A stretch of 39,603 bases of DNA from Parcubacteria group bacterium LiPW_15 (GCA_007375645.1 VMER01000004.1:1-39603); one strand, 5' to 3'; counted from the stretch's first letter, positions 28,508 through 39,603 are shown. Program-made: numbers and translations. Notes: generated by a model from the sequence alone, not told the origin.

Positions 28508-28626
28508 TTGCCGGCACATCCTACTTTCCCGAGGCCCGAAGGCCCAAGTATCATCAGATTTGGACGCTTTCACTTCTCTGTTCGGAATGGGAAGAGGTGG
28601 GACACATCCAAATAAAACACCGGCAA
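28508..28626 (-). rRNA. rrf: 5S rRNA
   Basis: Minus strand reads UUGCCGGUG...CCCACCUCUUCCCAUUCCGAACAGAGAAGUGAAA...GAUGAUACU...GGGAAAGUAGG...GCCGGCAA. Confidence 0.95.
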
Positions 28627-29082
28627 CTAAAGACCCGATTCCGGGTCTTTGCTCCGACATCGCTCGGCCGTAGCGCAATTTGTATTTGCGTTACGCTCCT
28701 TCGCTCGTCGTAGTAAGAACTCCGATTTCAGATTTCAGTTTAAAATTTCGAAGTATTTGCGATTAATTAAAGATTACATTTGATCAAACCAGCATTGGGA
28801 TGGCTGGCGGCTATTAGTATTCCTTGGCTAAACACATTGCTGTGCTTACACCTAGAACCTATCAACGTCGTAGTCTCCGACGAAGCCATAGCACCTAATC
28901 TTGAGGTTGGTTTCGCGCTTAGATGCTTTCAGCGCTTATCCAGTCCGAACATAGCTACCCGGCATTTCAGTTGGTACCAAAGCCGGTAGACCAGAGGTTC
29001 GTTCATCCCGGTCCTCTCGTACTAGGGACAACTCCTCTCAAGTGCGAACGCCTGCAGCAGATAGAGCCCAACCTGTCTCACG

Positions 29083-29847
29083 CTGTTGAATTAGCCGCTA
29101 GCGACTAGTAAATAGCCACTAGGGTTCATTGTCCATCATTGCTGATGGGATCGGACTATACCATCACCCGAACATTTATGTTTTTGGGTGGTTGACGTGT
29201 TAGCAAGGCTTATGCCTCACTCTGCTCTTTGCATTTTTAGAGCAAGTCTCTACGGGGTCAATACACGTTTCTTTCTTTTTTTGGAATAATTGAGCTCCCG
29301 ATAAGAATCGATAAGCGTAAGCAGAGTCGAAAAATCTTTTTCGTTCTCAACCTTCGCTTTCAGTTCAATTATCTTAAGCATTAGTTCCAATTGTCTTTTC
29401 TTCAAAATGACGAATGGTTTTACCGACTCCAGGAACTTTTTGATGTCATCTATTTTACTGATGGCATATTCCAGGATTCCGTCTTTCCTTTCGCGCATTT
29501 TTCCGCATCCAATAAGTTCGCATACCGCTTCAAAGTTTTCCTTATCTTGGGCGGACTGAAACAACACTACGTACAGAGCGATTTGGAATCCGTACCGATA
29601 GGTAGAATTCGGTTTTGCTCTTACATAAATGCTGCCGTCCCCATCAAGGAAACCGGCGATATATGCTCTTTTATTGGACGATAAAGACTTTGATAACATG
29701 TACGACTTCCCTCGATATTATCCTAACATATGACAGGTTGAATGTCTTGTATTGTTAGGACTTCATCGATATGAGTCAACTTATGCATCCAGTTATTCCT
29801 AACTGGAGCCGCCGTGTGTTCGATGTCATTTCCTCGGGTTCATTTTG
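29083..29847 (-). mobile_element. Group I intron at 23S position 2593 (E. coli numbering), 765 nt
   Basis: Interrupts GGGUUCAAACCGU^CGUGAGACAG; 5' exon ends in U and intron ends in G; IGS CACGGCGG (29809-29816) forms P1 and P10; core elements CGUAGAGACU and GGUAUAGUCC are present. Confidence 0.93.
29250..29699 (-). CDS. Single-motif LAGLIDADG homing endonuclease, I-CreI-like
   Basis: YIAGFLDGDGSI...KPN..Y...QI.L.....Q...E.IG.G...FL....PF..LK..Q..L.LKIIE follows the I-CreI pattern along its length. Confidence 0.93.
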   Translation of the reverse strand: MLSKSLSSNKRAYIAGFLDGDGSIYVRAKPNSTYRYGFQIALYVVLFQSAQDKENFEAVCELIGCGKMRERKDGILEYAISKIDDIKKFLESVKPFVILKKRQLELMLKIIELKAKVENEKDFSTLLTLIDSYRELNYSKKRKKRVLTP

Positions 29848-31280
29848 ACGGTTTGAACCCAGCTCACGTGGCCTTTTAATTGGCGAACAGCCAAACGCTT
29901 GGGAGCTTCTCCACCCCCGCGCTAGGCCGAGCCGACATCGAGGTGCCGAGCATGATCGTCGCTGTGGACGCTCGGATCATACTAGCCTGTTATCCCCGGA
30001 GTAGCTTTTATCCGTTGTCTCCGACCGTTCTATTAAGTGTCGTCGGGTCACTAAGTTCTGCTTTCGCATCTGCTCGACTTGTAGGTCTCGCAGTTAAGCC
30101 GGCTTTTGCCTTTACGCGTCGTGCCCGGTTTCCATCCGGACTAAGCCGACCTTAATAAACTCCTCCGTTACTCTTTAGGAGGAAAACGCCCCATTTAAAC
30201 TACCCGCCAGACACTGTCCCAGTTAGGTTTACCTTTTTGGGCTTCCTAACCGGTTAGCTTTTAAAATTGTGAAGATGGCTGTTTCATTGTCGAGTCCACG
30301 CAAACCGAAATCCACGTATCAACCTCTCACCACTACGCTACGCATCAAAACTCTAAAAGCAATATCAAGCTATAGTAAAGCTTCCGGGGTCTTTTCGTCC
30401 CGCTGCAGGTATCCCGCGTCTTCACGGGAATCGCATTTTCACCGAGCTCATCGTTGAGACAGTTCTCCAGTCGTTACGCCTTTCGTGCGCTTCGGAACTT
30501 ACCCGAAAAGGAATTGCGCTACCTTAGAACGGTTATAGTTACCGCTGACATTGACGAGGGCTTCGGGCGGTACGTAACACACCTTGCGGCATGCCACATC
30601 CACCGTTAACCTTCTCGCATCGGTCAGGCGTCACCCCCTATACATCCTATTGCTAGTTAGCAGGGAGCTGTGTTTTTGGTAAACAGTCGCTAGAGATACT
30701 TTCGCTGCGGCTCCGCTTGCGCGGAGCAGGCCTTATCCCGAAGTTACGGCCGCTTTTTTGCCGAGTTCCTTAACGATGACTCACTCGTTCCCCTTAGGCT
30801 TCTCGCCTCACCCACCAGTGGCGGTTTACGGTACGGAAGCCACACTATCGCTTTACTGGGTTTTTCTCGGAAGGCTCTTCGTTCACGTCCGCCCGGTAAA
30901 AACCGAACGTTCTCCCTCTCTCGGCCGAAGCCTTCAAGCAGGAATGCCAAACCAATAAGGCACGTGAATTTATTTTCTTCGTCCCCCAGATATGATAATG
31001 CGGCTGTGCAGGAATATTAACCTGCTGTCCATCAGCTGCGGCTTTCGCCATTGCCTTAGGGCCGACTAACCCGTGGTTGATTGCCAGTGCCACGGAAACC
31101 TTGGATTTGCGGGGTCTCAATTTCTCATTGGGATTGTGGTTACTCATTCCAACATTCTCTCTTCTTGGCGCTCCACGGGTCCTCGCGGATCCCGCTTCGC
31201 AGCAGCCAAGAATGCTCTCCTACCACTTGCGGACTTGATTGAGGAGGCGAGTTTGGTACTCGCCGGAAACCTGAAAGGCG

Positions 31281-31356
31281 TGGTGTGTCGTAGAGGACTT
31301 GAACCCCCAACTGAGAGATTTAGAGTCTCCCGCTCTACCAATTGAGCTAACGACAC
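31281..31356 (-). tRNA. tRNA with CUA anticodon (putative amber suppressor), Lys-like body, CCA encoded
   Basis: GTGTCGT TA GCTC AATTGGTA GAGC G GGAGA CT-CTA-AA TCTCT CAGTT GGGGG TTCAAGT CCTCT ACGACAC A CCA: a canonical 76-nt cloverleaf. Confidence 0.88.
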
Positions 31357-31389
31357 ACGCTTCCTTTCGAAAAGAACTGGTCAAAGAAA

Positions 31390-31465
31390 TGGAGCAGGTG
31401 GAAGGATTCGAACCCCCGACCCCCGGCATCCTGTGACGGTGCTCTGCCCACTGAGCTACACCCGC
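31390..31465 (-). tRNA. tRNA-like gene, Gly-type acceptor (G1-C72, C2-G71, U73), aberrant anticodon arm (nominal AGG)
   Basis: GCGGGTG/CACCTGC-T-CCA with normal D and T arms; anticodon arm CCGTC-ACAGGAT-GCCGG has a mismatch and C at position 33. Confidence 0.72.
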
Positions 31466-31485
31466 TCATTTCTTTTCTGAGAATT

Positions 31486-31564
31486 TGGTGGAACTGGGTG
31501 GATTGCAACCACCGACCTCCCGAGACCCTCTCGGGCGCTCTTCTGCTTGCTGAGCTACAGTCCC
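31486..31564 (-). tRNA. tRNA-like gene, Ala-type acceptor (G3-U70, A73), closed anticodon loop (nominal GGG)
   Basis: GGGACTG/CAGTTCC-A-CCA; anticodon arm CCCGAGA-GGG-TCTCGGG; D loop lacks GG; T loop TTGCAAT. Confidence 0.7.
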
Positions 31565-31590
31565 ACTTATTTCTTTTTGAAGAAGATCAA

Positions 31591-31665
31591 TGGTGGGCGG
31601 TAGTCGATTCGAACGACTGACCGGCGGCCTATCGAGCCGCTGCTCTTCCGCTGAGCTACCCGCCC
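31591..31665 (-). tRNA. tRNA-like gene, nominal Ile(GAT), Ile/Val-like body, C33
   Basis: GGGCGGG/ACCGCCC-A-CCA (7-66 mismatch); GCGGC-TCGATAG-GCCGC; AGTCG-TTCGAAT-CGACT. Confidence 0.75.
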
Positions 31666-31710
31666 ACTCACTTTTCTTCTTATCTTTCACATGTATTGAT
31701 TCCCAAGAAA

Positions 31711-31800
31711 TGGTCGGGTCGGCAGGAATTGAACCCGCGACCCCGTCGGTCCCGAAGCGCTTCGGCTTTGACGTGCTCTGCCAGGCTGAGCTACGACCCG
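31711..31800 (-). tRNA. tRNA-Pro-like gene (C1-G72, A73) with ~13-nt insertion in the anticodon arm
   Basis: CGGGTCG/CGACCCG-A-CCA, D loop AGCCTGGCA; anticodon region CGTC-AAAG-CCGAAG-CG-CTTCGG-GACC-GACG; 90 nt. Confidence 0.7.
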
Positions 31801-32610
31801 ACCTTTCTTCCAACATGTGTAGACTGCCCGTTCTTAAGGAGTCATCGGAGTTTTGATGGGCTTGGTTTCACGCGAAGCGTGAACCATCAAAACGAGATAC
31901 AGGCGCAAAATTTCCGCTGGAGAAATTTTGACGCCGGTCCTTAAGAACGGGCAGTCGTGATCCTCAATCAAGTCCGCAAATCCATAGCTTCGGTAGCGCG
32001 CTTAGCCCCGGTACATTTTCGGCGCTCCATACCAATCGAATAGTGAGTTGTTACACACTCTTTAAAGGATGGCTACCTCTAAGCCAACCTCCTATCTGTC
32101 CATGGTACAAAACTGCCTTTTACACTTAGCGCGCATTTAGGGACCTTAGCTTATGGTCTGGGCTGTTCCCCTCACGTACACGGAGCTTAGCCCCCGCGTA
32201 CTGACTACCTGGATTCCATGCACGGTATTCGGAGTTTGATTGGTCGGGCAGTCTTTCGACTATTACCGACCATCCAGTGCTCTACCCCCATGCATTACCG
32301 CCAGGCGCTAGTCCTAAAACTATTTCGGAGAGAACTAGCTATTACCGAAATCGATTAGCTTTTCACTCCTTACCCCAAGTCATCCGAGAGTGTTGCACAA
32401 CTCACCGGTTCGGACCTTCCTCCATCTTTCGACGGAGTTCATCCTGCTCAGGGCAAGCTCTTCCGGCTTCGAGTCTTATGCACGCGACTATCCTAAAAGG
32501 ATTACGCCCTATTCAGACTCGGTTTCCCTATGGATGCTCCCCCTAGGGGGATTATCCGAGCCACGTGCACAAAGTCGTTGGATCATTCTTCAATAGGCAC
32601 ACTATCGTCC

Positions 32611-32880
32611 GCTGCATCCCGAACAAATAAAGCGAGATATTGGTGGATTCGGCTTCTGCCGATTCCGCGACGCTCCGACGAAAGTGTAGTCTCGATGAAA
32701 CTACATTGAGGAGGTGCAACAATGGAATCGGCGAAGTCCGAATCCATACCAGATTATTTTTATTTCTGGCTTCGTTGCGCGTCGCTCATGTATCAGCTTC
32801 TGATACACATCGCTTCTTGCGCCTGGCCAGAAATAAAAATTCTTCTGGCCAATGCTCGTTCTATTTGTTCGGGATGCAGT
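32611..32880 (-). other. Structured non-coding intervening sequence in 23S helix 25
   Basis: Perfect 18-bp closing stem (32612-32629 with 32862-32879) at the E. coli ~545 position, with several internal hairpins. Confidence 0.85.
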
Positions 32881-32949
32881 CTAGACTTTAGTTCCTTGTA
32901 GACAAATGGTTTCAGGTTCTATTTCAACGGCCTCACCGGCCTGCTTTTA

Positions 32950-32980
<31 letters not shown>

Positions 32981-33750
32981 ATCATCAAAAGTATTTAGCC
33001 TTGCCTGATAGTACAGGCGAATTCCTTCAAGGCTTTCTTACCTTGAAGTACTCAAGAAAATAAACTAAAAAGTTCATCTGTTTTCGCCTACGGGGCTATC
33101 ACCCACTTTGGCTTCGCTTTCCAGCGAATTCGACTAACAAATGATTTTGTAACTTCTCCTTAGATCTAACCGCTATGCACTAGAGATGCACACAGCGGTT
33201 AAATCCAGTGTCTATTTCTTATGACCCCAAAAATAAATCTTGCGAAAAACTTTTGGTTTAGGCTCTGCCCGTTTCGCTCGCCGCTACTAAGGGTATAAAG
33301 ATTTTTCTTTTTTCCACCAGGTACTGAAATGTTTTACTTCCCTGGGTTCGCTCCTTGGCTTGCGCCAAGATAATTGAGGTTTACTCAATTGGGTTGCCCC
33401 ATTCGGAAATCCCCGGATCATCGGTTGCTACACACCTTCCCGAGGCGTATCGCCGCTACGCTGCGTCCTTCGTCGCCTTTTGATGTCAAGGCATCCACCA
33501 TTCGCCCTTATGCCAGCCATCCCAATGCTGATTTAACTTAAATGCGGACTTAATTTCTATTAAGTCTTACCTTTAATTTACCCAATCACCTTCATAAGGT
33601 GTTGGGGTTCGCATACTTCGATTTTCAAATTTCAGGAATGTATATTCACGAAAAAACCGCTGAGAGTCCAGCGGTTCCAGAGTTCGTCAAAGAGACGGCT
33701 TTAGACCGCAGAGACTATTGGTTTTATCTGAATATTCATTCGTGAGGATA

Positions 33751-33780
33751 AGTTTATATGAACTGCCACCCGCAAGTCAA
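33751..33780 (-). promoter_or_regulatory. Probable promoter of the 23S-5S unit
   Basis: Minus strand TTGACT-N18-TAAACT (or N16-TATAAA), about 230 nt upstream of the 23S 5' end. Confidence 0.55.
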
Positions 33781-33918
33781 GGGGTTGAAATGCAAACTCG
33801 GCGCATAGATAATAGATGCCTCGGCCTCAAGCCTAGGTCTCTATATATAGTGGAGTTTTCGCCAATACCGCCAGGAAAAGCTTATTTTATGAGTTTCGCC
33901 GGGCATTGCCTCTCCCCA

Positions 33919-33947
33919 TTGACAAAACCTCTCTAAAATGCTACAAT
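33919..33947 (+). promoter_or_regulatory. Near-consensus sigma70 promoter
   Basis: TTGACA-N17-TACAAT with an extended -10 TG, 47 nt before ATG 33995. Confidence 0.8.
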
Positions 33948-33994
33948 TCCCGAACAATTCAATTACCCGAAAAACGGGCTAAAATAATAACGAA

Positions 33995-36373
33995 ATGACC
34001 ATAACCAACAAAAAAATTCTCGGAATCGCAATTGTCCTCGTGGGCCTCACGTTCGCGGGAACTTCTGTTTCTACGGTGAATGCCGCTACCTGCCCCACGC
34101 TTTACGGCCACATTGTCCATCCGGGCGGAAACGGCTATCCAGCAACAGCTACGGCCACTAACGGATCTGACAACTGTACTGCGGAAATAACTTTCAGCGC
34201 ATATAAAGTTTATGTCACCCCGGGTCATCCGGGCTGGCTTGATACTCAGACTCTTTTTGATTCCCAAACCCTCACCTTCGCCCCGGGAGAAACCAAAACC
34301 TTCACGGTTAACACTCCCCAATGTTACGCCCAGCTCGATCTTTATGAAGGACCCGCACAACCCCATTTGAGCGACGCTGCTGGTGGATTTCCGGGCCAAA
34401 ATCTTTTGTCCTATTTGTTTACTGGCGGATCCGCCCTCTGTACGAACACACCCCCGCCGCAGCTCTCCTGCTCTCCCGCCAACCAAAATGTGGACATCAA
34501 TCAATCCGCTAATTTTTCCGCGAACGGCGGAGATGGAACCTATTCCTGGAGCTCGGGGTCAGGTTCTCCTTCGACCGGCAACGGAGCAAATTTTTCTTCT
34601 TCCTGGAACACTTCCGGAAACAAAACTGTAACCGTTACGAGCGGCTCCCAAACCGCTACCTGTTCGGTGTCCGTAAATCCTCCGGCTGTCGAACTTTCTT
34701 GTCAGCCTCAAACCCAGACCATTAACGTCGGCGATATTGCGGTCTTTTCCGCGCAGGGCGGCAACGGCAACTACAACTGGACCTCTCCCGGCTCCCCCGC
34801 CTCCGGCGTAGGTGCCAATTTTAGTTCCGCATTCTCTAGCGCCGGAGTTAAAACCGTAAACGTTACGGACGGAACTCAAACCAAGCAGTGTTCGGTTACC
34901 GTGAACGAAGTTGCGCAAAATCTTACTTGCTCTCCTTCGAGCCAGACCGGAAACGTGAATGACTATCTTACTTTTAGCGCCCAGGGCGGCAGCGGAAATT
35001 ACACTTGGAATGGCGGCGGAAATCCGACTACCGGCAACGGCACTTCGTTTGTCACGCAGTTTTTAACTTCCGGAAATAAAACTGTAACCGTTACGAGCGG
35101 CTCCCAAACTGCGACTTGTTCCGCATACATCAACCAAACCTCCTGCATCCAACCGAGCATCTATTTGAACGCAGCCAACAACATCACCGAGAACTCCGCG
35201 ACCCTTAATGGTTATATTGACCCTCAGGGCAAACCAACCACTTATTACTTTGAGTATGGCGTGAGCCAATCTTACGGCTACACCACCAATTCTCAGACGA
35301 TCACTTCTCCCCAAACCGTCACCTTCAGCATCTATGGCCTGCAGCCGAATACTACCTATTATTACCGTCTGGTAGCTCAAAGTGAATGCGGAACCAACCG
35401 CACCTCGGCTTTCAGTTTCACCACCCCCGGCGGCTACACCCCGCCCCAGCAGCAAATTTACTGCAATCCCCAAAACCAGAATGTTAACGTTAACGACTGG
35501 GTAAACTTCAACGCGACCGGCGGCAATGGCAACTATTATTGGTCCACCTCCGGAGACGCTTCTCCCTACAGCGGAAACGGCCAGAGCTTTGGCACCCGCT
35601 TTTCCAATAATGGAACGAAGATCGTAACCGTAAGTTCTTCAAATGGTGGAAGCGCGCAATGTATCGTCTACATAAACACCCCCCAGCAATATTCGAATTT
35701 TCAGATAACCAAAAATGTCTTGAATCGCACCCTCGGTCAGAGCGTGTATGTGAATAACGTTGAGGCTCAGTCTCAGGACCTAGTAGAATTTGAGATTCGC
35801 GTCCAAAATGCCAACTACAACAATAATTATTCCAATAACAACAATTACTACAATAATTACCAAATATTGGTTCGCGATGCGTTGCCCTACGGACTGACCT
35901 ATGTTCCCGGTTCCACGCGCGTTAACAACAATCAGGTTGCGGACGGGCTTACCCAGGGCTCCGGAATTTATCTGAATAACAATTACGGAAACCAGGAGCA
36001 GATCATCCGCTTCCAGGCGACCGTAAATCCGGACCGCATTGACGGATTACTTACCAACCAGGCTACTGTTACAATTAACTCAGATACGCGAAGCGCTTAT
36101 GCCACCGTGACCGTTCGCCCCCGTGGAACCGTTTTGGGAGCGGCTGATATAGTTACCGGTCCGGAAGACACGCTTCCCATAGTGCTTGCTCTCGGTTTCG
36201 CGTCCGCGCTTGCAGCCTATTATCTTTTGTTCCATCGCAAGGATGCCTCCCCGAAGCTAAACCTCGCTTCCGCCATCGTTTCCGAGACGCCTCGCGTAGA
36301 ACCCAAAAAGAAAACTGAGTTCGAAAAAATGCTGGAACGCATCCGGACAGAAGAAAAGTCCCCCGACGCGTAA
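33995..36373 (+). CDS. Secreted Ig-like repeat / FnIII / DUF11-like surface protein with C-terminal TM anchor
   Basis: Signal peptide, four 'L.C.P..Q...V...F.A.GG.G.Y.W...KTV.V...C' repeats, FnIII-like 'L.PNTTYYYRL', DUF11-like 'VRDALP.GL.YVPGS', then IVTG, a TM and HRK. Confidence 0.82.
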   Translation: MTITNKKILGIAIVLVGLTFAGTSVSTVNAATCPTLYGHIVHPGGNGYPATATATNGSDNCTAEITFSAYKVYVTPGHPGWLDTQTLFDSQTLTFAPGETKTFTVNTPQCYAQLDLYEGPAQPHLSDAAGGFPGQNLLSYLFTGGSALCTNTPPPQLSCSPANQNVDINQSANFSANGGDGTYSWSSGSGSPSTGNGANFSSSWNTSGNKTVTVTSGSQTATCSVSVNPPAVELSCQPQTQTINVGDIAVFSAQGGNGNYNWTSPGSPASGVGANFSSAFSSAGVKTVNVTDGTQTKQCSVTVNEVAQNLTCSPSSQTGNVNDYLTFSAQGGSGNYTWNGGGNPTTGNGTSFVTQFLTSGNKTVTVTSGSQTATCSAYINQTSCIQPSIYLNAANNITENSATLNGYIDPQGKPTTYYFEYGVSQSYGYTTNSQTITSPQTVTFSIYGLQPNTTYYYRLVAQSECGTNRTSAFSFTTPGGYTPPQQQIYCNPQNQNVNVNDWVNFNATGGNGNYYWSTSGDASPYSGNGQSFGTRFSNNGTKIVTVSSSNGGSAQCIVYINTPQQYSNFQITKNVLNRTLGQSVYVNNVEAQSQDLVEFEIRVQNANYNNNYSNNNNYYNNYQILVRDALPYGLTYVPGSTRVNNNQVADGLTQGSGIYLNNNYGNQEQIIRFQATVNPDRIDGLLTNQATVTINSDTRSAYATVTVRPRGTVLGAADIVTGPEDTLPIVLALGFASALAAYYLLFHRKDASPKLNLASAIVSETPRVEPKKKTEFEKMLERIRTEEKSPDA

Positions 36374-36398
36374 TATCAAAAAGTCGGCGACCCACAAA

Positions 36399-37364
36399 AT
36401 GAAAATGCTACAAAGAATTAAAAATTTCTTTATGCCGACCGAAGAAAACGCGGGCCTCCCGATATTTCTTTCCTCCTTCTCTCTCACCTTGCTCGGCGTT
36501 TTGGCCGCCTTTCTTCTGCTTGCTCCAGCAACCATCCGCGAAAATCAACTTGCTCAGCTTTTGGGCGGACCGACTTTTGCGAAAACGGATGTTATCCGTT
36601 TGGTTAATTCCGCTCGCGTGAATGCAGGACTCCCAAGCCTCAAAGAAAATGAAGTCTTGGATATCGCCGCCGCGGCCAAGGCCGAGGATATGGCAAGTAA
36701 AGAATATTTTTCCCATAATTCTCCGGATGGAAAAACTCCGTGGGATTTTATCAAGGGCGCGGGCTATAAATATACCGCTGCCGGCGAAAACCTTGCGATG
36801 GACTTTACAACCGCAGAAGCGGCCGAGAACGCACTCATGGCTTCTCCGACTCACCGTGCGAACATTTTGAACCCGCTTTACACGGAAATCGGCGTTTCCG
36901 TTGTTCGGGGAACGTTTGAAAGCCGTCCGGCCATCTATTTGGTTCAACACTTCGGCAAGCCGTCGGTGAAAGTTTCTCAACTCCCGCCGATAAAAGACCT
37001 GACTGCCGCCAAAGAGATACTGAAGCTCCCTGTCCAAAAAATCGAAACTCCGACAACCACCGCCAAGACCGCGGTTCTGGGCACGGAAATCAAACCCCAG
37101 GCTGTAAATCAGGCCGGCTCTCCGGCAACCGATATTCCCGATGTTCCGATCCGTTTTTTGGGATTTTTCGTGACCTTCATGCTCTTAACGACTCTTGCTA
37201 TAGCGCTGATCCGCTTAGGCGCGCTGCCGTTCGGAGTCATGATAAAAACTTTTGTTCTTATACTTATTTTCGGCTACATCGCGACCCATAGCGCGATCCT
37301 CAAGGAGGCTGCCCAAATAACGCCGGTATCTTTTTCCACTAACGCGATTAGCGTCGCAAGGTAG
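36399..37364 (+). CDS. CAP (SCP) domain membrane protein
   Basis: N..R...GL..L, AA.AKA.DM....YFSH.SPDG, AGENLA, MASPTHRANIL; N- and C-terminal TMs. Confidence 0.9.
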   Translation: MKMLQRIKNFFMPTEENAGLPIFLSSFSLTLLGVLAAFLLLAPATIRENQLAQLLGGPTFAKTDVIRLVNSARVNAGLPSLKENEVLDIAAAAKAEDMASKEYFSHNSPDGKTPWDFIKGAGYKYTAAGENLAMDFTTAEAAENALMASPTHRANILNPLYTEIGVSVVRGTFESRPAIYLVQHFGKPSVKVSQLPPIKDLTAAKEILKLPVQKIETPTTTAKTAVLGTEIKPQAVNQAGSPATDIPDVPIRFLGFFVTFMLLTTLAIALIRLGALPFGVMIKTFVLILIFGYIATHSAILKEAAQITPVSFSTNAISVAR

Positions 37365-37382
37365 AACGAGTAGAATATAGTA

Positions 37383-38036
37383 GTGAGGCGCCCGCTCCAA
37401 AACAAATTCCGCCGCCTGGCAATTTTTATCTTGCTCTTCTTGGGCGCAAGTTTATTTTTTTATCTTTTGCTGAATGGCGGAGCATTCTTTAAAGAACTCC
37501 GCTACGCAATATTTTTGAATTCGCCTTTTGTTTCTTATGATCTGAAGACCGGGGAAATATTAAAATTGGCTTCTGCCTCAAACTTGCCGCCGGGAGCGAA
37601 CTATCAGTTATTCCTCCCGCGCGTGCAGATCCAAACACCCATCGTCTCCCCAAAAGATCCTGGAACGGCATCGGTTTTAGCCGCGATGGAAGACGGCGTG
37701 GCTCTTTACCCGGGTTCTGTTCTGCCCGGCAATGTCGGCCGCGCGGTAATGCTGGGACACAGCTCCAGGGCCAGTTGGTATAGGGGAAACTACGCGACGG
37801 TTTTTTCGCTCCTCCCCCAAATGAAAGCTGGAGACATCATATATATAGTGGGAAACGGCAAAAAATATACTTACCGGGTCTCCGACAAAAGGGTGATGAG
37901 CCCAAACGATACCAATGCCCTTTTGAAGTCCGCCCCGAATGATTCCGAAATCGCGCTGATAACCTGCTACCCCATAGGTTCCGCCTCGCAAAGGAATATC
38001 GTTCTAGCAAAACTAATTGCGACGGAAAATATTTGA
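37383..38036 (+). CDS. Sortase
   Basis: N-terminal TM, PG..G..V..GHS (catalytic His), LITCYP (catalytic Cys) and a downstream Arg. Confidence 0.88.
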   Translation: MRRPLQNKFRRLAIFILLFLGASLFFYLLLNGGAFFKELRYAIFLNSPFVSYDLKTGEILKLASASNLPPGANYQLFLPRVQIQTPIVSPKDPGTASVLAAMEDGVALYPGSVLPGNVGRAVMLGHSSRASWYRGNYATVFSLLPQMKAGDIIYIVGNGKKYTYRVSDKRVMSPNDTNALLKSAPNDSEIALITCYPIGSASQRNIVLAKLIATENI

Positions 38037-38067
38037 TTGAGGGCCCGCAACCGCGTAACATATAAAT

Positions 38068-38874
38068 ATGCTTCCGATAGATTTAATTCTGGTTCGCCAC
38101 GGACAATCCGAGGGCAATGTTGCGAACAAAACAAGCCGGAGCGGCGATAACCGTTTCTTTACCGAAGAATTCAGAAATAGACATAGTCGCACATTTCGAT
38201 TAACCGACAAAGGCATCGAAGAAGCAAAGGCTGCGGGAGAATGGCTTAAAAATAATATCTCTACACCTATCGACAGATTCTATGTAAGCGATTATATCCG
38301 CGCCATGGAAACCGCGACGCTCTTGGATCTATCGAATGCGCTTTGGAGAAGAGAGTTTCATCTTAGGGAGCGCGATATGGCGCTCCAAGACAATCTTCCG
38401 GACGATGAGCGAAAGGTTTTATATCCGAAAGAAGACAAGCAGTACGCACAAAACAAATTCCTATCCATACCCGCCGGAGGCGGAGAATCCATTGCAAGTC
38501 TCTGCTTGCGCTTAAAGGCAACAATGCTGGCACACTGGGCCAGAGAATGCAGCGACAAGCGAGTTATCGCAGTTTGCCATGGACATGTAATGCGAGCGCT
38601 GCAGGTTGAGATTGAAGACCTTTTGCCCGAAAGATTCATAGAGCTTGATGAGTCGGAAAAACCGGAAGACAAAATACGCAATTGTCAGATTTTTTGGTAC
38701 ACACGCCGGGATCCGGAGACAAATGCTCTTGCTCCGCACATAATCGCAGTTCGCTCCGTTTGCCCATGGGACAAGCAGGGTGATTTCGGCTGGCGAAAGA
38801 TTCCCCGCAAACACTGGAGTAACAAGGAGCTTGCGGCCGAGGTTGAGAAACAAGAACGGCAAATTGCGCAATAA
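38068..38874 (+). CDS. Histidine phosphatase / phosphoglycerate mutase family protein
   Basis: LVRHGQSEGN, RA.ETA, LRE, GGES and VCHG motifs. Confidence 0.9.
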   Translation: MLPIDLILVRHGQSEGNVANKTSRSGDNRFFTEEFRNRHSRTFRLTDKGIEEAKAAGEWLKNNISTPIDRFYVSDYIRAMETATLLDLSNALWRREFHLRERDMALQDNLPDDERKVLYPKEDKQYAQNKFLSIPAGGGESIASLCLRLKATMLAHWARECSDKRVIAVCHGHVMRALQVEIEDLLPERFIELDESEKPEDKIRNCQIFWYTRRDPETNALAPHIIAVRSVCPWDKQGDFGWRKIPRKHWSNKELAAEVEKQERQIAQ

Positions 38875-38906
38875 GTTTGTGTTTGTCGCTAAAAGTTACT
38901 TCGTTC

Positions 38907-39603
38907 CTATTTTGTAGCGTTATAGAGCGCCGCTATTTCCGCCGCGGAAAGCGCGCGATTGTAGACGCGGACATCATCGATCTGGCCGTCAACGCCGTTT
39001 ACGCTATTGGAAATATTCATTGCATGAGAGCTACCCACGGGGGTTATTGTTTGCACCGCCGAAAATTTAAATTTCCCGTCAACGTAAAATTTCAAGTTGC
39101 TCCCGTCTGTTGTAAAAGTAAGAAGAACCCAGCTGCCTGCGCCAACGCCATTGGTGGCTTCGGAACCGCTCACAACATTGCTCGTTACCCCGTTCGCGAT
39201 CAATCCGTTGATGGTGGTCGCCCCGGACATCAGTCTGTAATTTACGCTAATATTTCCTCCGCCCGAACTTTTTAATACCACATAGCCATAATCTTTTAAT
39301 TGATCGAAATTTACCCAGGCGCTTATTGAAAAATTGCTTTCGAGCTTTAGAACATTATCGCCATTGCAGGTTATATAATCGTTTACCCCGTTAAAATTCC
39401 CCGAGTAAGATCCGACTTTACCGCCCGCATATCTTTCGGTAGAGGTTCCGTTCCACGTGCCGTTGTTTCCGTATCCCGAAGAATCTATTGTGTCTCCATC
39501 CAACTTCCAATACCCCACAAGACCAGATGGATTGTATAGAGGTGAAAGAGACAGGTTGTTACCCATGGCTATGACTCCGGGGTAATTGGAGATATTAGGG
39601 TTA
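38907..39603 (-). CDS. LamG/concanavalin A-like domain protein, 5' part outside the window
   Basis: LVGYWKLDG...DSSG.GN.G, FNG..DY, ISAWV, G.IDDVRVYNRALSA.EI; the frame stays open to the window edge. Confidence 0.85.
   Translation of the reverse strand, partial: NPNISNYPGVIAMGNNLSLSPLYNPSGLVGYWKLDGDTIDSSGYGNNGTWNGTSTERYAGGKVGSYSGNFNGVNDYITCNGDNVLKLESNFSISAWVNFDQLKDYGYVVLKSSGGGNISVNYRLMSGATTINGLIANGVTSNVVSGSEATNGVGAGSWVLLTFTTDGSNLKFYVDGKFKFSAVQTITPVGSSHAMNISNSVNGVDGQIDDVRVYNRALSAAEIAALYNATK

Follow-up and report, generated by a model that had tools for sequence, protein, structure and literature searches.

The locus

The stretch of DNA analyzed here (the window, 39,603 nt) is contig C4 of Parcubacteria group bacterium LiPW_15 (GCA_007375645.1, VMER01000004.1; G000 below), a groundwater bacterium of the candidate phyla radiation (CPR)/Paceibacteria type with a genome assembly of 791,784 bases in five contigs that is 98% complete. 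The window holds the only 23S rRNA gene of the genome, and the loop of helix 45 in this gene is occupied by an intervening sequence (IVS) of 741 nt, found as one copy in a genome search. Read from 5' to 3' along the minus strand, the IVS comprises an extension of helix 45, a long branched hairpin, five tRNA-shaped units (A, B, C, D and E) and a small hairpin (Table 1). Its minimum-energy fold is a multi-branch structure with a closing stem of about 22 bp.

In a separate assembly of run X1, one contig of 1028 nt covers positions 31038-32065, including both junctions of the IVS, with zero differences; X1 may be the source sample, and this support is not independent. The array is not obviously an assembly error. 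Mechanical translation of the IVS gives 13 open reading frames (ORFs) of 40-116 amino acids, which overlap the RNA units on both strands.

Table 1. Features of the 23S rRNA locus, in window coordinates
Feature	Position	Strand	Description and evidence
Unit A, Pro-like	31711..31800	-	C1-G72, A73, CCA; anticodon arm enlarged by 22 nt; ARAGORN; Rfam 44.4 bits; orthologues in five other IVSs
Unit B	31591..31665	-	Loop UCGAUAG (C33), G7.A66 mismatch, A73, CCA; ARAGORN; Rfam 51.7 bits
Unit C, Ala-like	31486..31564	-	G3.U70, A73, CCA; ARAGORN only; cloverleaf is the minimum-energy fold, z = -2.48
Unit D	31390..31465	-	G1-C72, C2-G71, G3.U70, U73, CCA; loop ACAGGAU; ARAGORN; Rfam 47.7 bits; orthologue in L069/L074; variant in run X3
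Unit E	31281..31356	-	Canonical cloverleaf, anticodon CUA, A73, CCA; ARAGORN; Rfam 65.5 bits
IVS, 741 nt, in helix 45 loop	31233..31973	-	Whole stretch is an insertion at position 1218 of the large-subunit rRNA model, between the helix strands
IVS closing stem, 5' arm (helix 45 extension)	31961..31973	-	Recurs with compensating changes in 13 other IVSs
IVS closing stem, 3' arm	31233..31245	-	Arm and adjoining helix 45 strand 22/23 identical to L069
Long branched hairpin, IVS 5' side	31822..31957	-	Fold; contains genomic repeat element
Small hairpin abutting closing-stem 3' arm	31246..31264	-	Fold; other IVSs hold a hairpin of different sequence at the equivalent place
23S rRNA gene	29728..33520	-	Rfam RF02541, 1981 bits, model 1-2925
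5S rRNA gene	28509-28624	-	Rfam

Architecture of the tRNA-shaped units

ARAGORN predicts five minus-strand tRNA-type genes in the IVS, of which A-D lie within 31390-31800 and E lies outside that interval. The gathering score of the Rfam tRNA model RF00005 (29 bits) is exceeded by A, B, D and E. Unit C gives no match to RF00005, and its sole Rfam match is a weak tmRNA hit of 14 bits that stays below the RF00023 gathering score of 47; the genuine tmRNA of the genome is encoded on contig C1.

An earlier reading of the window, made from the sequence alone, had described four tRNA-like units at 31390-31800 with essentially intact acceptor and T stems and CCA, and the present analysis bears this out. 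Acceptor stems are paired at 7/7 positions in A, C and D and at 6/7 in B, T stems are paired at 5/5 in all four units, and a discriminator base with CCA is encoded after each of A-E. The sequence-only reading had also claimed that U33 is missing in the canonical register and that each anticodon arm is broken in its own way. Indeed, U33 is found in none of the four (0/4): the enlargement of the arm in unit A includes an inner hairpin of 5 bp with a 4-nt loop, the loop of unit B has C33, unit C has a 7-bp stem closed by a 3-nt loop, and unit D combines a U30.C40 mismatch in the stem with C33 in the loop. Unit C also has a D loop without GG and the T loop UUGCAAU. When a working decoder is defined by a 5-bp anticodon stem, a 7-nt loop, U33 and a purine at position 37, all of A, B, C and D fail.

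The four units are closer to each other than to any normal tRNA of the genome, A and D sharing 64 identical positions, and the IVS units form a lineage of their own that is distinct from the local tRNA genes. Gly, Ala, Pro and Ile acceptor identities had previously been assigned to them; the listed elements are all present, whereas the specific identities say too much, since A-D resemble each other most. Under the identity rules of tRNA charging, only the G3.U70 units among them could be aminoacylated without the anticodon.

Unit E has the appearance of a normal tRNA. ARAGORN labels it 'tRNA-Pyl', and annotation would make an amber suppressor of it. A role in decoding can almost certainly be dismissed, because its L069 orthologue reads GAC and because TAG ends 84 of 318 long open frames. 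A reassignment of TAG served by unit E is rejected on the same grounds, TAG being an ordinary stop.

Conservation between species

L069 and L074 represent a different species, with a 23S core 97-99.5% identical to that of G000 and a protein-coding flank 76-77% identical. The L069 IVS contains orthologues of units D and E and is without A-C. When D and E are taken together, the leaders, acceptor stems, D arms, T arms, CCA ends and trailers are identical at 160/173 positions, as against 13/39 in the anticodon arms (Fisher p = 1.7e-14). The leader-trailer helix together with the acceptor stem is 100% identical between G000 and L069, the T-stem differences preserve pairing, and the conserved parts of the two units are as conserved between species as the rRNA itself. 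The anticodon of unit E is not kept among orthologues, being CUA in G000 and GAC (loop CUGACAC) in L069. Hypermutation of the anticodon arms was considered and is unnecessary, because neutral drift suffices where coding DNA is only 76-77% identical between the species.

Run X3 yields a shorter variant of the IVS that keeps the same 5' hairpin and unit D, with A-C and E absent. Among the substitutions listed inside its unit D, all 10 fall within nucleotides 19-44, which is partial evidence.

A second comparison is provided by the Pro-like orthologue set (C1-G72, A73, CCA), which spans six IVSs: unit A of G000 and units of L056, L054, L059, L068 and L072. All 72 of the 72 acceptor and T-stem cells are paired in these units, with changes on both sides at 6/12 pairs, a result matched in 0/500 shuffles; no alignment of their anticodon regions is possible. 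Four of these genomes have 11 genuine tRNA-Pro genes between them, in which the acceptor stems are different and CCA is encoded in 0/11 cases, compared with ACCA in 6/6 of the Pro-like IVS units, and the acceptor stem common to the L054 and L059 units occurs in none of the genuine genes. The Pro-like units are therefore not copies of local tRNA-Pro genes.

As judged from these sequences, the comparisons show selection for the tRNA 'top half' (acceptor stem, T arm, D stem, discriminator and CCA) and for the leader-trailer helix, with the anticodon arm free to change in sequence and to become smaller or larger. Selection on shape rather than random decay, proposed when the units were first noticed, is strongly supported by the homologues. 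Divergence among them is non-uniform and is accompanied by compensatory changes in the stems, which is the opposite of the uniform decay without such changes that the sequence-only reading had named as a refutation.

Between the D and E orthologues, L069 carries an additional element of 142 nt (L069:2970-3592, minus strand) that has an acceptor-like stem and an ACCA end, without a T arm. It is not found in G000, where the same place holds only a short 'GACCA' remnant; this remnant suggests that a whole unit was deleted in G000.

Recurrence in other intervening sequences

A DNA search of 100 related genomes with the whole IVS returned no complete IVS, only short pieces that were ordinary tRNAs or the hairpin repeat, and two genomes of the same genus gave no 23S match in their assemblies. 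In 54 relatives with matches to the 23S flanks, the distance across helix 45 varies from about 20 to about 575 nt. Among 20 helix 45 regions that were compared, tRNA-type matches were found in G018 and G006 only, and the other inserts are of hairpin type. The closing-stem sequence of G018, G006 and G013 is that of G000, with compensating changes.

The closing stem was scanned as a pattern over one genome per species and over metagenome contigs, which gave nine matches (seven in 23S genes) and 11 matches (nine in 23S genes), respectively. The remaining matches, L055 and L060 in genomes and L071 and L077 in metagenomes, are chance occurrences of the pattern outside rRNA and were left out of the counts. 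Among the nine metagenome matches in 23S genes, L073 is the same as L068, L074 is the same as L069 over the covered part and one is the G013 contig, so that six are new. Together with G000 and the seven from genomes, these make 14 distinct IVSs with this closing stem.

At least one tRNA-shaped unit is present in 12 of the 14, and ten of these 12 have an Rfam tRNA match above the gathering score; the units of L054 and L068 have no such match and are supported by a custom script only. The two IVSs without a unit consist of a short hairpin (G013) and of a hairpin ending in GCCA (L067). The IVSs with tRNA-shaped units come from uncultured Minisyncoccia/Paceibacterota/Parcubacteria, i.e. CPR bacteria. 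Over all of the IVSs, 24 units were recognized; by our own reading, a canonical 7-nt loop with U33 and a purine at position 37 occurs in seven and is missing from 17. The anticodon region of the 24 ranges from 17 to about 110 nt. The commonest position for an acceptor-stem G.U pair, again by our reading, is G3.U70, seen in 6/24 units of five lineages (G000 C; G000 D with L069 D; L054 unit 2; L062; L076 unit 1), four of which have A73.

One unit of a different character was observed in the complete 888-kb genome of L059, in which the first unit of the IVS (L059:988-1063) is a Lys(CUU)-like tRNA of 67.9 bits with a U1.C72 mismatch. The only other tRNA-Lys that a DNA search returned for L059 is a tRNA-Lys(UUU), so that an IVS unit might still be a decoder in some genomes.

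RNA ends and processing genes

Outside the IVS, the G000 genome encodes 45 normal tRNAs. They include three Gly, three Ala, three Pro and Ile-GAU, so that normal counterparts exist elsewhere, a check that the sequence-only reading had proposed, and the IVS units are redundant as decoders. ARAGORN finds no tRNA-Phe(GAA) and one CAU tRNA only on the five contigs.

The ends of the IVS units differ from those of the normal tRNAs in three respects. CCA is encoded in 5/5 of the units compared with 7/45 of the normal tRNAs (p = 3.7e-4). A U at position -1 is present in 17 of the 23 units scored over all IVSs, compared with 18/45 normal tRNAs (p = 0.011). Furthermore, each unit is seated on a helix formed by a purine-rich leader and a pyrimidine-rich trailer, which also pairs the discriminator and CC; the duplex energies are -8.3, -9.3, -1.8, -10.2 and -7.1 kcal/mol, whereas the median over the 45 normal tRNAs is -2.3 (p = 0.008). 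Features of an RNase P substrate are present in A-D, namely a coaxial acceptor/T minihelix (acceptor stems of 6-7/7 pairs, T stems of 5/5) with a T loop, and a 3' NCCA.

The genome contains genes for enzymes that could act on such RNAs: an RNase III (a PF14622 match of 136.3 bits in an open frame of 284 amino acids), a class A RNase P RNA (120.6 bits) and a CCA-adding-type enzyme. Searches for Fem/MprF-type transferases (PF02388, PF13480 and PF09924) gave 0 matches in the 98%-complete genome, an absence that, in an incomplete assembly, is not proof.

Other features of the window

The long hairpin on the 5' side of the IVS is near-identical in runs X2, X3 and X6, with related hairpins in L068 and L072. 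Within it (31887-31940, minus strand) lies a two-hairpin element of roughly 50-110 nt, which also occurs at C2:163693-163741 and C5:348210-348266 of G000 and in the relatives G019, G007, G008, G003 and L068; in G007, the element and the 23S gene share one contig. It may represent a small RNA element of a mobile or structured kind.

Two further stretches of the 23S gene are peculiar to G000 when compared with L069. Positions 29083-29846, in its 3' part, form a 764-nt stretch that has no counterpart in L069 and contains an ORF of 155 amino acids with a LAGLIDADG-type motif (29253-29717, minus strand); by its sequence this is an intron or homing-endonuclease insertion. Because of it, the 3' end called by Rfam (29728) is probably wrong: the last exon probably lies near 28950-29082, with the true 3' end downstream of that call. 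At 32610-32886, about 270 nt stand in place of 8 nt in L069, apparently as a third insertion, which is situated in the 5' third of the gene. No 16S rRNA gene adjoins the 23S gene in the part of the window upstream of its 5' end (33520-39603), which is protein-coding DNA, and the rRNA genes appear to be unlinked in this genome.

Discussion

The reading that we favor, with a probability of roughly 0.5, is that the units are non-decoding processing modules of a helix 45 IVS, kept for the tRNA top half and the leader-trailer helix. According to this reading, RNase III would cut the pre-23S rRNA at the long closing stem, as in other helix 45 IVSs, and perhaps at the leader-trailer helices too. Each module would then be recognized as a pre-tRNA, with RNase P acting at its 5' end and trimming at its 3' end back to CCA, and the insert would be dismantled into tRNA-sized pieces, leaving the 23S rRNA as two fragments. 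A disabled anticodon arm would stop RNAs that are made in rRNA amounts from interfering with decoding. Among the roles that the sequence-only reading had listed, pure processing signals fit best with the position of the IVS in helix 45 and with the parts that are conserved. Decoys for anticodon nucleases, also on that list, are unlikely, since the units do not conserve an anticodon loop that such enzymes could cut, and aminoacyl donors for Fem/MprF-type transferases find no partner among the families searched for in the genome.

Several observations weigh against units that serve as processing modules. The closing stem of G013 is the same as that of G000 and encloses only a short hairpin, so that excision needs no tRNA units; likewise, no tRNA-type match is obtained from the IVSs of G007 (about 375 nt) and G064 (about 575 nt) or from many family members of 100-170 nt. 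CCA is not universal, being encoded, by our reading, in 15 of the 24 units of all IVSs and absent from nine. Pairing of the leader with the discriminator and CC would be expected to hinder rather than aid cleavage by RNase P. In the RNase P RNA of G000, UUUGU is aligned at the consensus GGGU with low posterior probabilities (2-4). The GGU of loop L15 is the CCA-binding motif, and if this low-confidence alignment holds, then the encoded CCA is not explained by RNase P. The genome gives no RNase Z match at the cut-off (best 20.8 bits against 292.95). Finally, folding by energy alone returns a cloverleaf for C and E and nearly so for A, and does not do so for B and D (z = +0.87 for D), so that the cloverleaves of B and D rest on the covariance-model match and on the comparison with relatives.

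The encoded CCA also speaks for a different and tentative explanation, considerably less probable than the favored one, in which the units mature into stable CCA-ended tRNA-like small RNAs that are coupled to rRNA and act in trans. The enrichment of CCA in the units of G000 and in the Pro-like set (5/5 against 7/45 and 6/6 against 0/11) is not obviously needed by a cleavage signal that works in cis, and the conserved parts match rRNA in their conservation. Units of the G3.U70 class could be charged by AlaRS as non-ribosomal aminoacyl carriers; G3.U70 is the commonest acceptor G.U pair (6/24 units, five lineages, four with A73). Another possibility is that proteins with a grip on the tRNA elbow or on the acceptor end are bound or titrated by the units; in either case, the anticodon arm would be a free slot. 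However, no FemAB, PF13480 or MprF C-terminal family was found in the genome, and the most widespread type of unit is Pro-like, while ProRS requires the anticodon. Moreover, nine of the 24 units are without CCA, and units are gained and lost among close relatives (X3 is without A-C and E, and L069 without A-C), which would be odd for a fixed role in trans.

In an extended form of this idea, equally doubtful, the IVS would be an expression platform from which RNase III, RNase P and 3' trimming release abundant CCA-ended RNAs on a tRNA scaffold, in a fixed ratio to ribosomes. The top half would be read by tRNA-binding proteins, with the G3.U70 class, for example, being alanylated, and the anticodon arm would offer a slot for cargo, 17 to about 110 nt long and free to evolve; such RNAs would act in trans in a host-dependent cell.

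Somewhat less likely again is that the units are structural ballast: whatever is inserted in helix 45 has to fold up with its two ends held together, so that the helix can close and domain II of the 23S rRNA can fold. On this view, tRNAs and tRNA-derived hairpins would be tolerated on no other account, and no enzyme would read the units as tRNAs. The helix that joins the ends of each unit (leader-trailer plus acceptor stem) is the most conserved part, at 100% between species, and IVSs made of hairpins only exist in the family. Canonical cloverleaves also grade into units that hold inserts of roughly 70-110 nt, and these into plain hairpins with an NCCA end, for example in L067 and in the middle unit of L069. 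Holding the ends together would nevertheless need neither the retained D stems, T stems and T-loop consensus, nor the compensatory changes in the T stem, nor the enrichment of CCA and U-1.

It is very improbable that the IVS is retained, with the tRNA-shaped modules forming an expansion segment of helix 45 on the mature ribosome. The rRNA-like conservation of the top halves and the fact that this is the sole 23S gene of the genome would agree with retention, but the number of units varies among close relatives, the closing stem is long and perfect and an RNase III gene is present, and helix 45 is the classical site of IVSs excised by RNase III (PMC11270868; PMC4990558). Capture of ordinary tRNA pseudogenes by the IVS, followed by neutral decay, would account for the variously broken anticodon arms, for some badly degenerate units in other IVSs and for the gain and loss of units, but it is just as improbable in view of the non-uniform decay (13/39 in anticodon arms against 160/173 elsewhere, with coding DNA at 76-77%), the compensatory stem changes and the separate lineage of the units.

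For annotation, these results mean that tRNA gene finders over-count tRNAs in such genomes and may suggest a false amber suppressor, and that some of the 'long insertions of unknown function' in CPR rRNA gain concrete, testable content. The array also offers a natural experiment for telling apart what processing enzymes need in order to recognize a tRNA and what decoding needs. Should released RNAs act in trans, then minimal-genome organisms would have a new class of small RNAs coupled to rRNA, and an expression platform would be the equivalent, in nature, of the engineered 'tRNA scaffold'.

Comparison with known systems

Helix 45 is described in PMC11270868 and PMC4990558 as the classical site of 23S IVSs, which are excised by RNase III. 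The IVSs of Salmonella, Leptospira, Coxiella and others are removed by RNase III without religation; the IVS of G000 resembles them in site, in its long closing stem and in its patchy distribution among relatives. Such IVSs are found in reduced genomes with a single rRNA operon, and G000 is similar in this respect and has an RNase III gene. By site, stem and available enzyme, the insert of G000 is, as far as its sequence indicates, an IVS of the helix 45 kind. Long inserts of unknown function are mentioned in a 2024 survey of CPR rRNA insertions (PMC11270868); the word tRNA is absent from its main text, although its supplements might list such inserts. A literature search turned up no paper that describes units of tRNA shape within a 23S IVS.

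In the tRNAs of rRNA spacers (16S-tRNA-Ile-tRNA-Ala-23S) and in mitochondrial 'tRNA punctuation', tRNAs are co-transcribed with rRNA, and RNase P and 3' enzymes separate the neighboring RNAs. The succession of unit B (anticodon GAU) and unit C (G3.U70) corresponds to the Ile-Ala order of the spacer tRNAs. However, spacer and punctuation tRNAs are working decoders between genes, whereas the units of G000 lie inside the 23S gene, have for the most part no anticodon loop that could be used and duplicate what the 45 normal tRNAs provide.

Staphylococcal non-proteinogenic tRNA-Gly and the tRNA-like domain of tmRNA have kept the acceptor for charging and given up decoding, and their likeness to the present units lies in the G3.U70 and A73 of unit C and of three units of other IVSs. 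The staphylococcal tRNA-Gly retains a normal anticodon loop, and G000 has no match to the Fem/MprF families; as for tmRNA, the 14 bits of unit C fall short of the gathering score of 47, and a separate tmRNA is encoded in the genome.

Plant mitochondrial t-elements and MALAT1 mascRNA are non-decoding tRNA mimics, the only known job of which is to recruit nucleases that act on tRNA ends. A tRNA-like structure upstream of 5S rRNA in Haloferax volcanii is a cleavage signal that is cut by tRNase Z, as cited within PMC3296008 (Holzle et al., 2008). No RNase Z was found in G000, unlike in the Haloferax case, and each of the units in G000 stands on its own leader-trailer helix. These mimics are single elements at the end of a transcript, which is how tRNA-like processing signals have been known, while up to five units stand in tandem inside an rRNA helix in G000. 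By analogy, the units would work most like tRNA-like processing elements.

Helix 45 IVSs have hitherto been treated as selfish or inert hairpins, and the known ones are hairpins or hold a small ORF. In contrast, the IVS of G000 is an rRNA insert with an array of up to five tRNA-shaped modules that are under selection, in which the top half, CCA and flanking helices are rRNA-like in their conservation while the anticodon arm drifts.

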